A DNA stretch of 64,000 nt. Origin: Candidatus Sulfomarinibacteraceae bacterium (GTDB lineage Bacteria; Acidobacteriota; Thermoanaerobaculia; Thermoanaerobaculales; Sulfomarinibacteraceae). The stretch's first letter is position 1; each line of letters starts with the position of its first letter. The notes beneath the pieces are model-generated. The model searched no databases. It was not told the origin of the DNA and saw nothing but the letters and a program-made list of their open reading frames with translations. Positions 4,500 to 61,564 of this stretch are shown here, piece after piece. The DNA is taken from contig CAWCLO010000003.1 of assembly GCA_963796455.1 (NCBI GenBank), forward strand, positions 128,001 to 192,000, written 5' to 3'. The translations under genes were made by a program, and so were the position numbers.

Positions 4500-5335
4500 C
4501 TCATCGCAGCCACCAAGACAAACGGGAACCAAGGCATCGCGATGCAGCGCAATTTGCCCACAGATCACGCAGATGACAGCCTGATTGCGAAGGCGTCAGC
4601 CATCTCTGCAATCGAAACGCGTCAGCTTCGGGGTTTTTCAACGCAAAGGCGCAATGGCAGCCGAACTGCTGGATCGATATTGCCAAGAGTCGTATTGAAC
4701 GCAGAGGCGCAGAGGACTTCCCGGAAGACTCCTGCGCAGTCGCGCAGGTCTCGCCTCCTTCCTCCCCCTTTCTTCAATCAAGGGAGGATGTCACCGATGC
4801 AAGGCAGATCCGGCATGCCGTAGGCTTGCCGGTCGGTGGGAAGCGGGGTGACTCCGAGCGCTGGCGATCAGAGGCGCCCCGCTTCTCACCGGCGACGGGC
4901 GATCGAAGATCGTCTGTCGATCTGCCGACACTGATGGCAACACCGCTCAATTTCGCCTACCAGACCTTGGCGTCTTTGCGACTTTGCGTTCTTTGCGTTC
5001 TTCGCGGTTCAACCATGTGCACGCGAGACGCGTGCACCACCATGGTGGTGCAGCCGTCTCGGCTGCACTCCGGTCGTGCCTTTGCGATGGCTTCTGTGTT
5101 TTTCTGTGTGTTCTGTGAGCCTTTGCGCCAGCTCTCTGTGTTCTCTCTCTCTGTGTCTCCGTGCCTCTGTGGTTTTCTTGGTGTGACGCCTTCGTGTCTT
5201 TGTGTCTTCGTGGTTGCGACGAGTATGCGATGGATCTGGGTCCATCTGGGTGATCTGTGGGCAAATCCGATCCGTTTCCTGTCGATAGCGATGATCAAAT
5301 CTGCGTTCATCTGCGTTATCTGCGGTTTCTCCTGA
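4500..5335. mobile_element. Non-coding composite repeat element, family 2 copy 1 (9-mer arms, structured core, REP doublet)
   Basis: 17-bp IR ATTTGCCCACAGATCAC (4552)/GTGATCTGTGGGCAAAT (5250); the right end ATCTGCGTTATCTGCGGTTTCTCC is near-complementary to the left end of the copies at 29691 and 32393; 4731-5115 is homologous to 32643-33028. Confidence 0.7.
5027..5068. repeat. GTGG-tagged REP doublet
   Basis: GTGCACGCGAGACGCGTGCACCAC-CATG-GTGGTGCAGCCGTCTCGGCTGCAC; repeated at 32929-32970. Confidence 0.75.
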
Positions 5336-12165: not shown

Positions 12166-12313
12166 GAATTTCGAATTTGGAAATTGGGATTTGGGATTTT
12201 CCGCTTGCCTCAGCCGCTGATTCAGAGAAAGGCTGTCGAGACGGGGCGCCCGCCGCAACCCACAAGACTTCCGATCTACCAAATCCGAAATCCGAAATCC
12301 GAAGTCCGAAATC
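12166..12313. repeat. Inverted pair of heptamer arrays (ATTTGGG/ATTTCGA) ... (AAATCCG)n
   Basis: 12166-12200 versus 12281-12313 AAATCCGAAATCCGAAATCCGAAGTCCGAAATC. Confidence 0.85.
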
Positions 12314-13369: not shown

Positions 13370-13870
13370 CGAGAGGGAAAGGGGGAATCGCACAGTCGCT
13401 CGATTCTCGATTCTCGATACTAGATGCTGGACGCTGGATGCTGGATGCTGGATGCTGGACTACTCTTGTCCAAGACGGTGTCTCGGAGAGCTTTCAGGGA
13501 CAGCGACGGGGAACAGGAGTCAGCGGCAGCGACCAGCGGCTGGGACAGTGAACAGCACCCATAGCTTCGGGGCTCCGACCTTGGTGGTGCGGCCGTCGCG
13601 GCCGCACGGTGTGCAGGCGAGACGCCTACACCACAACGACTGTTCCTTCCGTTGAACAACCCGGAGGTGGCCACGCCGTCACTGCACCTGGCCGCTGCCG
13701 CTGAACACTGATCGCGGTTCCCTGTCGCTGATCTCTGCCGCTGACGCTGGATACTGTCGCTGCCGCTGTGATTCCCGTTCATGTTTCCGAAAGGAGGAAG
13801 GGAAAACAACTCCCTTGCCGGCCGAAGGCTCAATCCCCCTTCTCCCTTTCCCCCCCTTCTCCCTTTCTCC
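13370..13870. mobile_element. Family 1 repeat-bounded element, gene-less copy A with a REP doublet in the core, nested in GCTGGAT heptamer and AAAGGGRG octamer layers
   Basis: End motif ACTCTTGTCCAAGACGGTGTCTC at ~13462; CAGCGA-rich left arm and TCGCTG-rich right arm; retains TTGAACAACCCGGAGGTGGCCAC (13652); REP doublet 13584-13633. Confidence 0.7.
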
Positions 13871-13922
13871 TCGCCCCAACACTCGAAGCGGCAATGTGGC
13901 ATTTCGGGGGTACGATATCCCC

Positions 13923-14816
13923 ATGACCCGCGGAATTGACGACCACATGCACGAATTCCTCGCCCATCTGTCGATCGAGAGGAATCTCAGCCCGCGAACC
14001 ATCGAGTCCTACCGCCGCGATCTCCGCCAATTCAGCAAATGGCTCGCAGATCACGGCACGGAGCTGGCCGCGGTCGAACGTGCCACTCTCCGCGACTACC
14101 TCGGTTCACGACGGGATGCCGGTCTTTCGGCACGATCATCGGCACGCGCCCTGTCGGCTCTGCGCAGCTTTTTCAAATACCTCGTACTGACCGAGGACTT
14201 GAGCTCCGACCCCACCACCAACCTGCGATCTCCGAGCCTGTGGCAGACCGTCCCGCACGCCCTCTCCTCGGACGAGATCGAGACGCTCCTGGCCGCGCCG
14301 AATACCAAAAGTACCCTCGGCATGCGCGATCGGGCGATGCTGGAAACCTTGTATGCAACCGGTCTCAGGGTGTCGGAACTGGTCGGCCTCACCGTGGACC
14401 GGGTTCGCCTCGATCCCGGTTTTGTTCGAATCATCGGTAAAGGCCGCAAGGAACGCCTGGTGCCGCTCGGGGAATCGGCGGTTTCCTGGATCGACCGTTA
14501 TCAGGTGGGGGCGCGACCCGAATTGAATCGGAAGCGCCTCCCGGTTCTTTTCTTGAACCACCGCGGCGGCGGGCTCACCCGGCAGGGTTTCTGGAAAATC
14601 CTGCGCGGCCACGCGATCACCGCGGGGATCTCGTCGAATGTGAGCCCCCACGTGGTCCGCCATTCATTCGCGACCCACCTGGTGGAAAACGGCGCCGATC
14701 TGCGCGCCGTCCAGATGATGCTCGGACACTCGTCACTCACCACCACCGAGATCTACACCCATGTCGCGCGCGAACGGCTTCGTCGTCTTTACGACGAGAA
14801 GCATCCGCGGGCATAG
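13923..14816 (+). CDS. xerD: Site-specific tyrosine recombinase XerD
   Basis: RDRAMLETLYATGLRVSEL, GKGRKERLVP, SPHVVRHSFATHL, LGHSSLTTTEIYTHV, C-terminal HPRA. Confidence 0.95.
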   Translation: MTRGIDDHMHEFLAHLSIERNLSPRTIESYRRDLRQFSKWLADHGTELAAVERATLRDYLGSRRDAGLSARSSARALSALRSFFKYLVLTEDLSSDPTTNLRSPSLWQTVPHALSSDEIETLLAAPNTKSTLGMRDRAMLETLYATGLRVSELVGLTVDRVRLDPGFVRIIGKGRKERLVPLGESAVSWIDRYQVGARPELNRKRLPVLFLNHRGGGLTRQGFWKILRGHAITAGISSNVSPHVVRHSFATHLVENGADLRAVQMMLGHSSLTTTEIYTHVARERLRRLYDEKHPRA

Positions 14817-14831: not shown

Positions 14832-15575
14832 ATGGTTTTCGGATTTCAGGTTTTCCCCAGAATCTTTGGAACGGACTGCGACGGTTGGAAATCCGAAATC
14901 CGAAATCCGAAATCCGAATTCGCGTTCCTCATGATCTTGATCCTTGGCATGGCTTTTTTCCCCACTTCGGCTGACGCCAAGCTGGTTATCTTCACCGACG
15001 GCAGGGTCCTCAAGGTGGCCGACGCCCGGCTCGACGGGGCGGAACTCGTGCTCGAGTTGCGCGGTGGTGGAAGCCTCAGCGTTTCCGCGGTCCGGGTCGA
15101 TCGGGTGATCGCGGACGAGGTCGATGACAAATCGATCGACCCCTTCGAAGATCCCTCATGCCGTCACGGCTGGCGCGATGACCCCCTTCCGCCGGGTCTC
15201 CCCTTTCGCGATTCCATGACGAGAGCCGCACGGGCCGCCGGTCTCAACCCATATCTGGTGGCCGCGGTGGTCAGAACCGAATCAGCCTTCGATCCCCTCG
15301 CCGTGTCAAAAGCGGGTGCAGCGGGTCTCATGCAATTGATGCCCGCTGCAGCAGCCGATCGTGAGGTCGAGGATGTCTTTGATCCCGAAGACAACCTCCG
15401 CGGCGGCGCCGAACATCTCCGCTTGATGATCGATCGTTTCGAGTCGCTCACCCTCGCCCTGGCCGCGTACAACGCCGGTGCCACGACGGTTGAACGTTAT
15501 GGCGATATTCCTCCCTATCGCGAGACGAGGAACTACGTGCGGAAGGTGCTGGCTCTCTTCTGTCCCGAGGGATAA
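14832..15575 (+). CDS. Lytic transglycosylase (SLT domain)
   Basis: AVVRTESAF, SKAGAAGLMQLMP, ALAAYNAG, PPYRETRNYV; SD GGGAGGT before ATG 14832 (alternative start 14931). Confidence 0.9.
   Translation: MVFGFQVFPRIFGTDCDGWKSEIRNPKSEFAFLMILILGMAFFPTSADAKLVIFTDGRVLKVADARLDGAELVLELRGGGSLSVSAVRVDRVIADEVDDKSIDPFEDPSCRHGWRDDPLPPGLPFRDSMTRAARAAGLNPYLVAAVVRTESAFDPLAVSKAGAAGLMQLMPAAAADREVEDVFDPEDNLRGGAEHLRLMIDRFESLTLALAAYNAGATTVERYGDIPPYRETRNYVRKVLALFCPEG
14835..14921. repeat. Inverted heptamer cassette inside the 5' end of the SLT gene
   Basis: GTTTTCGGATTTCAGGTTTTCC ... GGAAATCCGAAATCCGAAATCCGAAATCCGAATTC. Confidence 0.8.
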
Positions 15576-15584
15576 AAAAGCGAG

Positions 15585-16150
15585 CCTGGATGCTGGATCA
15601 CTTTTGTCCAAGACAGAGTCTCGGATTGCGTACAGGGACAGCGACAGAATTCAGCGCCAGCGAACAGTCACCAGCGGCAGTGTTCAGTCATCAGCGTCAG
15701 CGATCAGCGACCGGGGCAGGGACTGAACTCGCCGAACGGATGGCCTGATCGGCTATCGACTTCAGCGGAGCGGGAACTCTCATCACGAGTTTGATCGCGA
15801 TGCCTGCTGCTTCGAGGGCTTTCGAGTGGGCAATGAGACTGGTGTTCGTGGCGGCTGAGGACATGGTCACCTCCGGGTCGTTCATGCCCATACCCACAAG
15901 CCGGTGTGGTGGCCGATGTCAAGGATGCCCTGCACCCTGCCTGTCCTTGACATCGGCCGCCCACCGGCTACCCCTTCTGTTGAACGACCCGGAGGTGGCC
16001 ACTTCGTCGCCTGCTCCTGACCGCTGCGCTCTCTCCGTCGCTGAACACTGACCGCTGTCCCTGTTCGCTGATTCCTGTCGCTGTCGCTGGACACTGTCGC
16101 TGTCGCTAGAATTCGGACACGGACGCGGACACGCGCACGGGGCAACCGCA
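15585..16150 (-). mobile_element. Family 1 element copy B carrying a truncated four-helix-bundle gene
   Basis: End motif ACTTTTGTCCAAGACAGAGTCTC at ~15600; CAGCGA/TCGCTG arms; leader hairpin 15864-16001. Confidence 0.75.
15716..15864 (-). pseudogene. Four-helix-bundle protein, 3'-truncated (first ~50 codons)
   Basis: MSSAATNTSLIAHSKALEAAGIAIKLVMRVPAPLKSIADQAIRSASSVPA matches the full copies, then runs into the repeat arm. Confidence 0.85.
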
Positions 16151-23198: not shown

Positions 23199-23998
23199 AT
23201 ACTCGATGCTGGATCACTCTTGTCCAAGACAGAGTCTCAGACAGCGACCGGGGACAGGGACGGGTAACGGCGGACAGCGTCAGCGAACGGTTGTCAGGGT
23301 CAGCGATCAGCTATCAAAAGCAGCGACCGGTAACGGCGCTCACATTTTCGGGTTCAAGAGCCGCCAGGTCATCGCTCGGACCTGATCGAACGCCTTCATC
23401 GCGTCAAGGGCTGCTGTTCGGCTGATTGCCCCGGCGTGGGCGAGGAGCATTAAGTGGCTGTCGACCTCTTTGGCCGAGGCGTAGGCGATTCTCCAGTGGT
23501 TCAACCGGTCTCTACCGAATCGGCCGTGCCCTTCGGCCATGTTCGCAGGGACCGAACTTACCGACCGGATCACCTGATCGGCTATGGACTTCAGTGGAGC
23601 TGGAACCCTCATCACAAGCTTGATCGCGATTCCTGCTGCTTCGAGGGCTTTCGAGTGGGCAACGAGGTTGGTGTTCGGGACGGCGTTGGACATGGTCACC
23701 TCCGGGTCGTTCATGCCCATACCCACAAGCCGGTGTGGCGGCCGATGTCAAGGATGCCCTGCACCCTGCCTGTCCTTGACATCGGCTGCCCACCGGCTAT
23801 CCCTTCTGATGAACGACCCGGGGGTGAGCACTACGCCGCAGGAACTCCAGACTACTGCCGCTGCTCTCCGTCGCTGAACACTGATCGCTGCCCCTGATCA
23901 CTGATTGCTGACCGCTGTTCCCTGTCCCTGTCGCTGCCACTGCAATTCCGGCACAGGCGCGGGGGAACCGTGAATCGAGCACCTAGTATTGAATATCC
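23198..23998 (-). mobile_element. Family 1 element copy C carrying an intact four-helix-bundle gene
   Basis: End motif ACTCTTGTCCAAGACAGAGTCTC at ~23216; repeat arms; leader hairpin 23693-23830; right end CTGCAATTCCGGCAC. Confidence 0.75.
23340..23693 (-). CDS. Four-helix-bundle protein (23S rRNA IVP / Avd-like family), 117 aa
   Basis: ADQVIRSVSSVPANMAEGHGR...RIAYASAKEVDSHL family-type signature; SD GGAGGTG just upstream of the ATG. Confidence 0.9.
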   Translation of the reverse strand: MSNAVPNTNLVAHSKALEAAGIAIKLVMRVPAPLKSIADQVIRSVSSVPANMAEGHGRFGRDRLNHWRIAYASAKEVDSHLMLLAHAGAISRTAALDAMKAFDQVRAMTWRLLNPKM

Positions 23999-25456: not shown

Positions 25457-25527
25457 CGTCATTTCAGGATATGTGGAGTGGTGCCAGATGCTGCAGATCA
25501 TCACTCCGACATCGGGGCGCACGAGAC

Positions 25528-25608
25528 GGAGAATCCGCAGATCACGCAGATGAACACAGATCAATTCGGGCTCGACATTCTGCGCCTATCTGCGGTATCT
25601 GCGGTTTT
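25528..25608. repeat. Minimal inverted 9-mer cassette (family 2 arms)
   Basis: GGAGAATCCGCAGATCACGCAGATGAACACAGAT ... ATCTGCGGTATCTGCGGTTTT between convergent genes. Confidence 0.8.
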
Positions 25609-38489: not shown

Positions 38490-39165
38490 CTGGAACCACT
38501 CTTGTCCAAGACAGAGTCTCAGACAGCGTTCAGGGACAGCGACGGCGAACAGTAGTCAGGGGCAGCGTTCAGTCATCAGCGGCAGCGAACAGCGGCCGGG
38601 GCAGCGATAGCACCAGTGATCAGCTCTCACTTCGTCGGGTTCAGCAAACGCCAGGTCATCGCACGGACCTGATCGAATGCGTTCATCGCTTCACTGGCTC
38701 CGTTCGGGCTGATCGCCCCGGCGTGGGCGAGGAGCTCCAAGTGGCTGTCGACCTCTTTCGCCGAAGCGTAGGCGATCCTCCAGTCGTTCAACCGGTCTCT
38801 ACCGAATCGACCGTACCCTTCTGCCAGGTTCGCAGGGACTGAATTTGCCGACCGGATTACCTGATCGGCAATGAACTTCAGCGGAGCTGGAACCCTCATT
38901 ACAAGCTTGATCGCGATGCCTGCTGCTTCGAGGGCTTTCGCGTGGGCAACGAGGTTGGTGTGCTTGGCGGCGTTGGCCATGGTCACCTCCGGGTCGTTCA
39001 TGCCCAGTCCCACAAGCCGGTGTGGCCACGCCGCCACTGCACCTGATCGCTGGCCCTGAACACTGATTGCTGCCCCCTGTCCCTGTTCGCTGTTGCCTGT
39101 CGCTGTCGCTGGTAGCTGACGCGGATTCCTGTCGCTGATCGCAGATGCTGTCCGCCGCCCCTGAT
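38490..39165 (-). mobile_element. Family 1 element copy D carrying an intact four-helix-bundle gene, leader hairpin deleted
   Basis: End motif ACTCTTGTCCAAGACAGAGTCTC at ~38498; repeat arms; leader joins CCGGTGTGG directly to CCACGCCG. Confidence 0.75.
38627..38980 (-). CDS. Four-helix-bundle protein (23S rRNA IVP / Avd-like family), 117 aa
   Basis: ADQVIRSANSVPANLAEGYGR...RIAYASAKEVDSHL; about 20 of 117 residues differ from the 23340 copy. Confidence 0.9.
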   Translation of the reverse strand: MANAAKHTNLVAHAKALEAAGIAIKLVMRVPAPLKFIADQVIRSANSVPANLAEGYGRFGRDRLNDWRIAYASAKEVDSHLELLAHAGAISPNGASEAMNAFDQVRAMTWRLLNPTK

Positions 39166-46607: not shown

Positions 46608-46950
46608 GCAGAATTCAGGGACAGCGACAGGGAACGGCAGACAGCGGCGGCGATCAGTGTGCAGCGGCAGAGATCAGGGGCAGCAATCAGGTGCAGTGAC
46701 GGCGTGGTCACCTCCGGGTCGTTCAACAGAAGGAACAGCCGTTGTGGTGTAGGCGTCTCGCCTGCACACCGTGCGGCCGAGACGGCCGCACCACAAATGC
46801 CGGAGCCCCGAAGATATGACTGCTGTTCACTGTCCCGGCCGCTGATCGCTGACCCTGATGACTGAACGCTGCCGCTGACTCCTGTTCGCTGTCGCTGAAT
46901 TCTGTTGCTGGCGCTGAACTCTGACGCTGTCGTCCCTGTCCCGGACAGCA
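46608..46950. mobile_element. Family 1 element, gene-less copy E (inverted relative to copy A)
   Basis: TGGTCACCTCCGGGTCGTTCAACAGAAGG at 46705; REP doublet 46744-46794 homologous to 13584-13633; repeat arms. Confidence 0.7.
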
Positions 46951-47002
46951 GTGATGGTCGGTGTTCGATCGGGCCCCATAACCCGAACGACCAAACGGGT
47001 CC

Positions 47003-48221: not shown

Positions 48222-48239
48222 GCCCACCCAGGAGGACGA

Positions 48240-48393
48240 TGAGGCAATGGGGCTATGGAGCTATGGGGCTATGGGGCTCTCAGGCTTCAGGATCGGGAGA
48301 CCAGGCGGAGAGAATCCTCAAAGCCCCATTACCAGGGCGGGTAGCAACCGGTCATAGCTCCATAGCCCCATACCGCCATGCCCCATTGCCTCA
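48240..48393. repeat. Inverted octamer cassette (GGGGCTAT)n ... (ATAGCCCC)n
   Basis: TGAGGCAATGGGGCTATGGAGCTATGGGGCTAT ... ATAGCTCCATAGCCCCATACCGCCATGCCCCATTGCCTCA. Confidence 0.9.
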
Positions 48394-60804: not shown

Positions 60805-61464
60805 ATGGGCAAAAAAATCGGGGTCGTTCTCTCCGGTTGCGGCGTCTACGATGGCGCAGAAATCCACGAATCGGTGATCACCCTGCTGGCCATCGACCGG
60901 CATGGGGCCGAGGCCATCATGTGTGCACCCAACAGACCTCAGCTCCACGTCGTCAACCATTTGACGGGAGAGGTGGAGGAAGGCGAAGAACGCAACGTCC
61001 TCGTCGAGTCGGCCCGAATTGCGCGCGGCGCAGTCAAGGATGTCATAGATATGTCGGCCGACGAATTGGACGGATTGATTCTCCCGGGTGGTTTCGGCGC
61101 GGCAAAGAATCTCTGTGATTTCGCCGTCTCCGGCGCGGAGTGTGCCGTCGATCCGGGCGTCGCCGCCCTGGTCCGCGAGGTCCACGAACAAGGCAAACCC
61201 GTCGCCGCGGTCTGTATCGCGCCCGCTCTCCTGGCCAAGGTCCTTGGCGGCGAGGGGCCCGAACTGACGATCGGCAACGACGCCGACACCGCCGGCGCGA
61301 TGGAGAGCATGGGCGCGACACACGTCGCCTGCCCGGTGGAGGACTTCGTGGTTGATCATGAGCGCAAACTGGTGAGCTCGCCAGCCTACATGCTCGCGGG
61401 CAACATTTCCGAGGCGGCCGAAGGGATCGAGAAGACGGTCGCTGCGCTGATCGAGATGGCTTAG
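60805..61464 (+). CDS. elbB: ElbB/ES1 (DJ-1/PfpI family) glyoxalase
   Basis: LSGCGVYDGAEIHE, ESARIARG, PGGFGAAKNL, CIAP, PAYM. Confidence 0.95.
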   Translation: MGKKIGVVLSGCGVYDGAEIHESVITLLAIDRHGAEAIMCAPNRPQLHVVNHLTGEVEEGEERNVLVESARIARGAVKDVIDMSADELDGLILPGGFGAAKNLCDFAVSGAECAVDPGVAALVREVHEQGKPVAAVCIAPALLAKVLGGEGPELTIGNDADTAGAMESMGATHVACPVEDFVVDHERKLVSSPAYMLAGNISEAAEGIEKTVAALIEMA

Positions 61465-61480
61465 GGGGCTCCAGGCCCCC

Positions 61481-61520
61481 GGGGCTATGGGGCTATGGGG
61501 CTATGGGGCTATGGGGCTAT
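61481..61520 (+). repeat. Perfect tandem repeat (GGGGCTAT)5
   Basis: Direct reading; same unit as at 48240 and 50427. Confidence 0.95.
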
Positions 61521-61564
61521 GGGCGTTGAGCGTAGAACCGACAACCCATGACGGATTGCCCGGG

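Follow-up and report, generated by a model that had tools for sequence, protein, structure and literature searches.

Promoters of single-stranded DNA (ssDNA) of the Frpo/ssi type were reportedly the subject of work by Masai and Arai in 1997. They lie in the leading regions of F, ColIb-P9 and pESBL, and consist of a long stable stem-loop of the template strand that restores -35 and -10 signals immediately ahead of a gene (PMC11541004, PMC9849209, PMC12672017). Two other described systems are close in part. The 5' leader of IS200 and the RNA-OUT control of IS10 use an inverted repeat that buries the Shine-Dalgarno sequence (SD) in a two-armed RNA (PMC4513863). The ORF-bearing intervening sequences of 23S rRNA have complementary flanks and encode proteins of the S23p/PF05635 family (PDB 2GSC, 2RLD), four-helix bundles whose function is given as unknown in PMC4990558.

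The window analysed here, a stretch of 64,000 nucleotides, is part of contig C3 of a Candidatus Sulfomarinibacteraceae genome (G000; 5.0 Mb, 90.5% complete). It contains at 15864..16001 a hairpin whose plus strand is the template strand of a four-helix-bundle gene. The feature is real, and its fold, conservation and geometry are established. From its layout it appears to work like Frpo/ssi and is a candidate for that class, with a predicted activity. Like those promoters as described, it has a long stable template-strand stem-loop directly before a gene and a -35 box at promoter spacing. Unlike them, it is chromosomal, occurs in dozens of copies, precedes a four-helix-bundle gene and not a conjugative leading region, and has its -10 signal reduced to TA at a ready-made fork. 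It resembles the IS200/IS10 controls in burying the SD, but its ORF belongs to TIGR02436/PF05635 with no transposase gene behind the hairpin, its promoter boxes are split between the arms, and its wobble pairs favour the non-coding strand. With the rRNA intervening sequences it shares the protein family and the complementary flanks; here, however, the element is intergenic, the protein is under purifying selection, and four other PF05635 genes of the genome are hairpin-less. An identity as rRNA intervening sequence, which would call for a place in an rRNA helix and excision by RNase III, was rejected: of all copies, the nearest lies 7.7 kb away from a 16S motif, and its distance to the 23S motif is 11.8 kb.

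Repeat search, folding and covariation define the whole hairpin, and a sequence check puts its three nested inverted repeats exactly where the first-pass annotation had placed them. The outer arm on the gene side (15864..15884, plus strand, as for all hairpin parts below) is the predicted template side of the downstream duplex; its minus strand carries GGAGG at 15870-15874, leading into the second ATG at 15862-15864. This SD-led ATG is the start named in the first-pass annotation; a further in-frame ATG lies 21 nt upstream (15883..15885, minus strand). It sits at the edge of the predicted bubble, and its A (15885) is the putative transcription start. The template side of the internal loop (15885..15898), the predicted bubble, is unpaired and pyrimidine-rich. 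It is followed by the gene-side inner arm (15899..15925), which has TGTCAA at 15917-15922 and would provide the template side for both -35 box and spacer. The middle repeat GCCGGTG/CACCGGC occupies 15900-15906 and 15962-15968, and the inner repeat arms occupy 15911-15925 and 15944-15958. Between them is an 18-nt apex (15926..15943) that is nearly invariant across the copies within this genome; in relatives the apex is branched, 18-38 nt long, and terminates in a mini-hairpin with a 3-nt loop. The far arm has TTGACA at 15947..15952, the predicted non-template -35 box, and a -10-like hexamer, TACCCC, at 15969..15974, in which the T is paired, the A is unpaired and conserved, and there is no T at -7. 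Repeat search and folding put the unpaired non-template side of the internal loop at 15970..15980, and the far outer arm, which would be the anti-SD in read-through RNA, at 15981..16001.

The same fold had been noted at 23693-23830, and a second full hairpin is indeed present there (23693..23830, plus strand; TTGACA at 23776, TA at 23798), although two copies proved a great underestimate, as the genome holds 68 full hairpins. RNA and DNA folds of both strands give z-scores of -7.7 to -12.3 against 200 shuffles, and the plus strand is the better folder in both window copies. An Rfam search of the hairpin gave no match. The remark that no good -10 accompanies TTGACA is true in the gene direction only, where no consensus promoter was found on duplex DNA; a conserved -10-like TA lies 16 nt past the TTGACA at 15947, on the arm directed away from the gene.

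The layout was compared in 271 pooled leaders, of which 253 were parsed and then reduced to 81 at 85% identity. Along the plus strand, the far arm reads TTGACA or a near variant, then a paired spacer, then TA. The spacer is 16 or 17 nt in 80 of the 81 leaders, and its pairing is kept across 67 different spacer sequences. TTGACA, noticed earlier in both arms of the inner stem, is kept on both arms across the leaders, and is intact on the gene arm in 67/81 as against 51/81 on the far arm. The TA at -12/-11, with T paired and A unpaired, is found on the far arm in 76/81; the corresponding gene-arm position is TA in 0/81. The -10 box is reduced to this TA, as the -7 T of TAnnnT occurs in only 8/81 leaders, compared with 49/79 of the host's double-stranded promoter-like sites (background 23%), and this depletion makes the far arm a poor ordinary promoter. 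At the loop edge on the gene arm, 74/81 leaders have C/T-ATG, with its A at +1 (47), +2 (11) or +3 (15) when the paired T sets the count. For this genome, the first ATG has its A at +3 by the template count and at -1 by the other. The bubble is 72% pyrimidine on the plus (template) strand over the 81 leaders. Transcription generally prefers a pyrimidine ahead of a purine start. Past the loop is an outer stem of 21-24 bp (21 bp here), whose gene-side arm continues into the gene's template. At -33/-31, the far (non-template) arm is off consensus in 13 of 80 leaders and the gene (template) arm in none, with one miscalled row dropped; judged by eye, the changes are scattered over several separate parts of the tree.

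This arrangement can be set beside what is known of RNA polymerase. According to PMC2613000, the polymerase recognises the -10 box solely through the non-template strand, a stable complex forms on a fork that has a lone -11 A, the -7 T matters for fork binding, and the sigma contacts at -33 and -31 are with the template strand. Open-complex scaffolds used for crystal structures were unpaired from -11 to +2 (PMC4593229). The layout of the folded plus strand matches that of an open promoter complex. It recurs in a family with different stems (f2), in which the TA is on the far arm in 20/20 parsed leaders (21 found) and on the gene arm in 0/18, and in whose type A copies the first ATG is the sole start codon. 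Three copies of a further type share the layout of f2 and the main family. An invertible promoter between the outer repeats was rejected, because the TA arm is on the gene side in 0/81 leaders and all copies have one orientation.

Covariation was assessed in an alignment of 52 rows. It joins the window copy to 51 relatives chosen from a non-redundant set of 80, from which 29 had been removed by hand for cleanness. In it 96.1% of cells are paired and 21/46 pairs are changed on both sides; 0/500 shuffles were as high, and slid controls fell to 23-46%. The stems therefore covary in the larger alignment that the first-pass annotation had called for. Its claim of a strand bias fared less evenly. 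All four transition mismatches in the two window copies do give G.T on the plus strand, but two are not independent, being family-wide states (60/68 and 39/68 copies). The bias is weak in this genome, with 15 distinct wobble events on the plus strand against 7 on the other (p 0.13, not significant). Among 138/147 leaders, there are 55 genome-level events on the template strand against 23 (p 0.0004), or 31 against 17 if distinct positions are counted instead (p 0.06). For the 81 non-redundant leaders, the inner stem has 43 on the template strand against 21 (p 0.008), so the bias survives moderately, with all of these p-values overstated since the sequences are related. Mutation input is not skewed toward this bias, because C>T (19/26) and G>A (18/22) are symmetric at fourfold sites of the gene. 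The apex has a 3-nt loop in 76/81 leaders, and GNA loops are seen in 33 leaders for the template strand and in 10 for the gene strand; the apex of this genome's copies has no GNA loop. GNA triloops are a DNA feature. A single leader of the 271 (L077, in G003:C42) has its apex inverted between the inner arms, like a terminal-hairpin flip-flop.

Each of the 68 hairpins is intergenic and chromosomal and precedes, on the same strand, a TIGR02436/PF05635 four-helix-bundle gene or its remains, 57/68 being intact. Between gene copies dN/dS is 0.16 and dS 0.36, and deviation from consensus affects 1.6% of cells in stem columns versus 5.8% in loop columns, so that selection keeps the protein as well as the fold. 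The cassette core consists of a CAG array, the hairpin, the gene and a CTG array. At the first site (limits approximate) the CAG-type array of 6-7 nt repeats is at 15631..15722, 3' of the gene, and the CTG-type array, its inverse, is at 16002..16108, 5' of the gene (both plus strand). The ORF there (15697..15885, minus strand; 62 codons from the first ATG) is internally deleted and runs into the repeat array; the second half of the gene is lost, and the stop follows 55 codons from the SD-led ATG. The ORF at 23340..23714 (minus strand) is intact, with 124 codons from the first ATG and 117 from the second, and scores over the cut-off for both TIGR02436 and PF05635. A third copy at 38627..39030 (minus strand) has an intact ORF and a hairpin deleted down to the gene-side arm. 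This deletion lies between short shared sequences and offers the promoter model a test made by nature.

Close relatives of the protein are in records of Thermoanaerobaculia, Sulfomarinibacteraceae or Acidobacteriota. The core is absent from the orthologous gap in 4/5 relatives at the 15864..16001 site and in 5/5 at the 23 kb site. In G006 (L311, C1) a differently deleted cassette copy lies in the same orientation at the same site behind the slt gene. The neighbours in the window, at 13815-14816 and 14832-15575, are an ordinary xerD and a gene for a lytic transglycosylase. Other families of short tandem repeats occupy intergenic gaps at 5299-5332, 12267-12313, 14875-14921, 25525-25607, 48226-48291 and 61458-61531. 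Four single four-helix genes of other subfamilies (G000 C4:1278094, C1:983149, C9:2726 and C10:733004) are the PF05635 genes without the hairpin; they have inverted 6-8 nt repeat arrays of their own. The genome also has 6 matches to Y1/RAYT transposases. In G040 (L282, L289, L300, L306) two different four-helix cassettes stand tail to tail in convergent pairs, each with its own fold-back leader where the sequence covers it. The orientation of the gene has no replication-strand bias (40 leading vs 28 lagging, p 0.18), and a bias to the lagging-strand template was rejected, being absent among the 68 copies. No relatives were found on plasmids, phages or viral contigs, and a phylum sample had relatives in 4/301 genomes, with at most 15 candidates scored per genome.

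Taken together, the leader of this multicopy cassette is likely to be a Frpo-like ssDNA promoter, one that would form only by fold-back of the template strand. As duplex, the gene has a -35 box and a start but lacks a -10 box, and it would therefore be silent. Folding of the template strand would bring in the missing TA from the far arm, at a fork that is already open. RNA polymerase, presumably with the housekeeping sigma, would engage the -35 box in its paired form together with the fork at -12/-11, initiate on the first ATG's A or close to it, within the preformed bubble, and pass through the outer stem into the gene. RNA made in this way would not include the far arm, which would leave its start sites accessible. 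In read-through RNA the fold would bury the ribosome site, giving an off state. Possible exposers of the strand are a copying intermediate, DNA uptake, repair or cruciform extrusion; polymerase binding, transcription and the single-strand source are all features that we infer. A transcription start downstream of the upstream arm, an outcome listed by the first-pass annotation as counting against its own proposal, is what this model predicts.

The same fold could instead act as RNA, burying the ribosome site in incoming transcripts, with TTGACA-N16/17-TA of the far arm as a weak outward promoter, a reading that we regard as somewhat unlikely. Opening the SD region costs 25.2 kcal/mol in read-through RNA versus 8.4 in a transcript starting at the first ATG (57 copies), which supports computationally, for RNA with both arms, the earlier claim that the upstream arm hides the ribosome site. 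Opening energies were used because mean unpaired probability failed to separate the SD (0.31 in the short RNA vs 0.29 in read-through RNA; first ATG 0.93 vs 0.12). G307 has five copies with SD-burying hairpins and no TTGACA, and IS200 and IS10 (PMC4513863) provide the precedent. TA and TTGACA share one arm and could work on duplex DNA, as do the antisense promoters of insertion sequences. Against this, the wobble pairs and GNA triloops favour the opposite strand, conservation of TTGACA is stronger on the gene arm (67 vs 51 of 81), something that an outward promoter would not need, and the -7 T is depleted. The outward RNA would also begin past the inner stem and have no overlap with the mRNA, and the gene would be left without any promoter although its protein is under purifying selection. 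IS10 and IS50 are themselves shielded from outside promoters. The annotation had posed a choice between translational silencing and a structured antisense RNA or ssDNA recognised by the element; occlusion is supported computationally, structured ssDNA is the better option, and the evidence favours host RNA polymerase over recognition by the element.

It is improbable that the fold is instead a single-strand origin, where the polymerase makes a short second-strand primer and the gene is transcribed from elsewhere. The geometry would be the same as for an ssDNA promoter, the outer stem ends after 21-24 bp, and Frpo is reported to act in both transcription and priming (PMC12672017). However, the predicted start is an in-frame ATG, the sole start codon in f2 type A, no other gene promoter was found, and no copying intermediate was seen. 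More doubtful still are two further roles for the fold, as an antisense RNA resembling an open promoter in the manner of 6S RNA or as a site to which the four-helix protein binds. The strand bias would fit antisense RNA equally, the downstream neighbour is directed toward the element in 44/68 copies, and PF05635 resembles Avd of diversity-generating retroelements (DGRs), according to PMC10053308. Strand-specific retention of -35 bases and the 3-nt GNA loops, however, fit DNA, the hairpin has no counterpart in Rfam, and no reverse transcriptase was found in the genome, at its 90.5% completeness. A DGR/Avd-type retroelement, or retro-mobility by a resident reverse transcriptase, was rejected in G000, which has no PF00078 match. 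Reverse transcriptase is present in 11/24 other genomes of the genus. Adenine-biased changes were not seen, variable columns being about as frequent at A, C and G.

The cassettes are carried in part by a frame derived from IS4. An 18-bp terminal repeat of this frame is at 15599..15616 (plus strand), with the partner end missing at the 15864..16001 copy, and the terminal repeat of the second cassette copy is at 23215..23232 (plus strand). The genome has 255 end motifs, compared with 4 for the reversed control, and 72 end pairs, 21 with exact 9-bp target duplications. The upstream end accompanies 40/68 hairpins, the downstream end 45/68 and both ends 30/68. Identical 18-bp ends flank an intact 425-codon transposase of the IS4 family (NF033592) in G017 (L343, C434, 151-1428), which is a candidate for the mover of the frame; a transposase of this type was searched for in the present genome and not found. 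The 18-bp terminal repeats, the 9-bp target duplications and the ends in common with an IS4 transposase are like those of non-autonomous IS4-family cassettes (MITE/MIC), but only 30/68 copies here carry both ends. In 79 leaders from 17 other genomes, IS4-type ends are clear in G006 only, and most relatives' cores are bare or within a different frame. The frame is therefore a carrier, and the hairpin did not originate with it but belongs to the gene. The same IS4 frame holds other short cargo (~310 or 387 nt) in G008, G020, G021, G024 and G005 (L344, L345, L346, L348, L350, L351; L318). A second, unrelated terminal-repeat frame surrounds the core in L011, L030, L055, L066, L073 and L086, where it is inserted in AACGTT-type arrays.

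Some observations count against an ssDNA promoter. One is the missing -7 T, in view of its part in fork binding (PMC2613000); others are the G307 hairpins without TTGACA, the non-significant strand bias within this genome, the failure to find relatives on plasmids, phages or viral contigs, and the even replication-strand orientation. The 130 matches examined include 108 partial copies with the CAG array. Among these derivatives, 65 without the ORF have multiplied, 63 of them without the TA, and 10 partial copies share one deletion of the gene arm. Since box-less copies have multiplied, spread does not always depend on the promoter; the IS4 frame or recombination may be the cause in these cases. 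The ORF-less derivatives carry another palindrome where the gene and most of the hairpin would stand, and the window has examples at 13461-13740 and 46609-46953. The template-side -35 box is lost in 4/9 sampled copies of G008, three of them among the 18/271 unparsed leaders. In the phylum sample G231 has the full layout, G192 a similar one with CA for TA, and G307 the five SD-burying hairpins mentioned above. RNA runs added little, as five had less than a tenth of the words and four gave only short contigs of relatives without strand, start or level.

Literature tying ssDNA promoters to four-helix-bundle genes was not found among the full-text matches listed, a scope that leaves aside most subscription papers. 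If the ssDNA-promoter model is true, a promoter active only on ssDNA would reveal the timing of the gene's expression, and would be a sign that the cassette spreads through a single-stranded stage. The range of ssDNA promoters would then reach beyond plasmid leading regions and take in chromosomal repeats, with a split design that relies only on the -35 box and the -12/-11 fork. More tentatively, the cassettes may be a class of mobile element with an ssDNA stage, in which the folded template strand would recruit the host polymerase to make the mRNA and perhaps a second-strand primer, and whose protein would act in cis on that molecule. Such an element, if it exists, would account for the retention of gene and fold alike, both intact, in dozens of copies.
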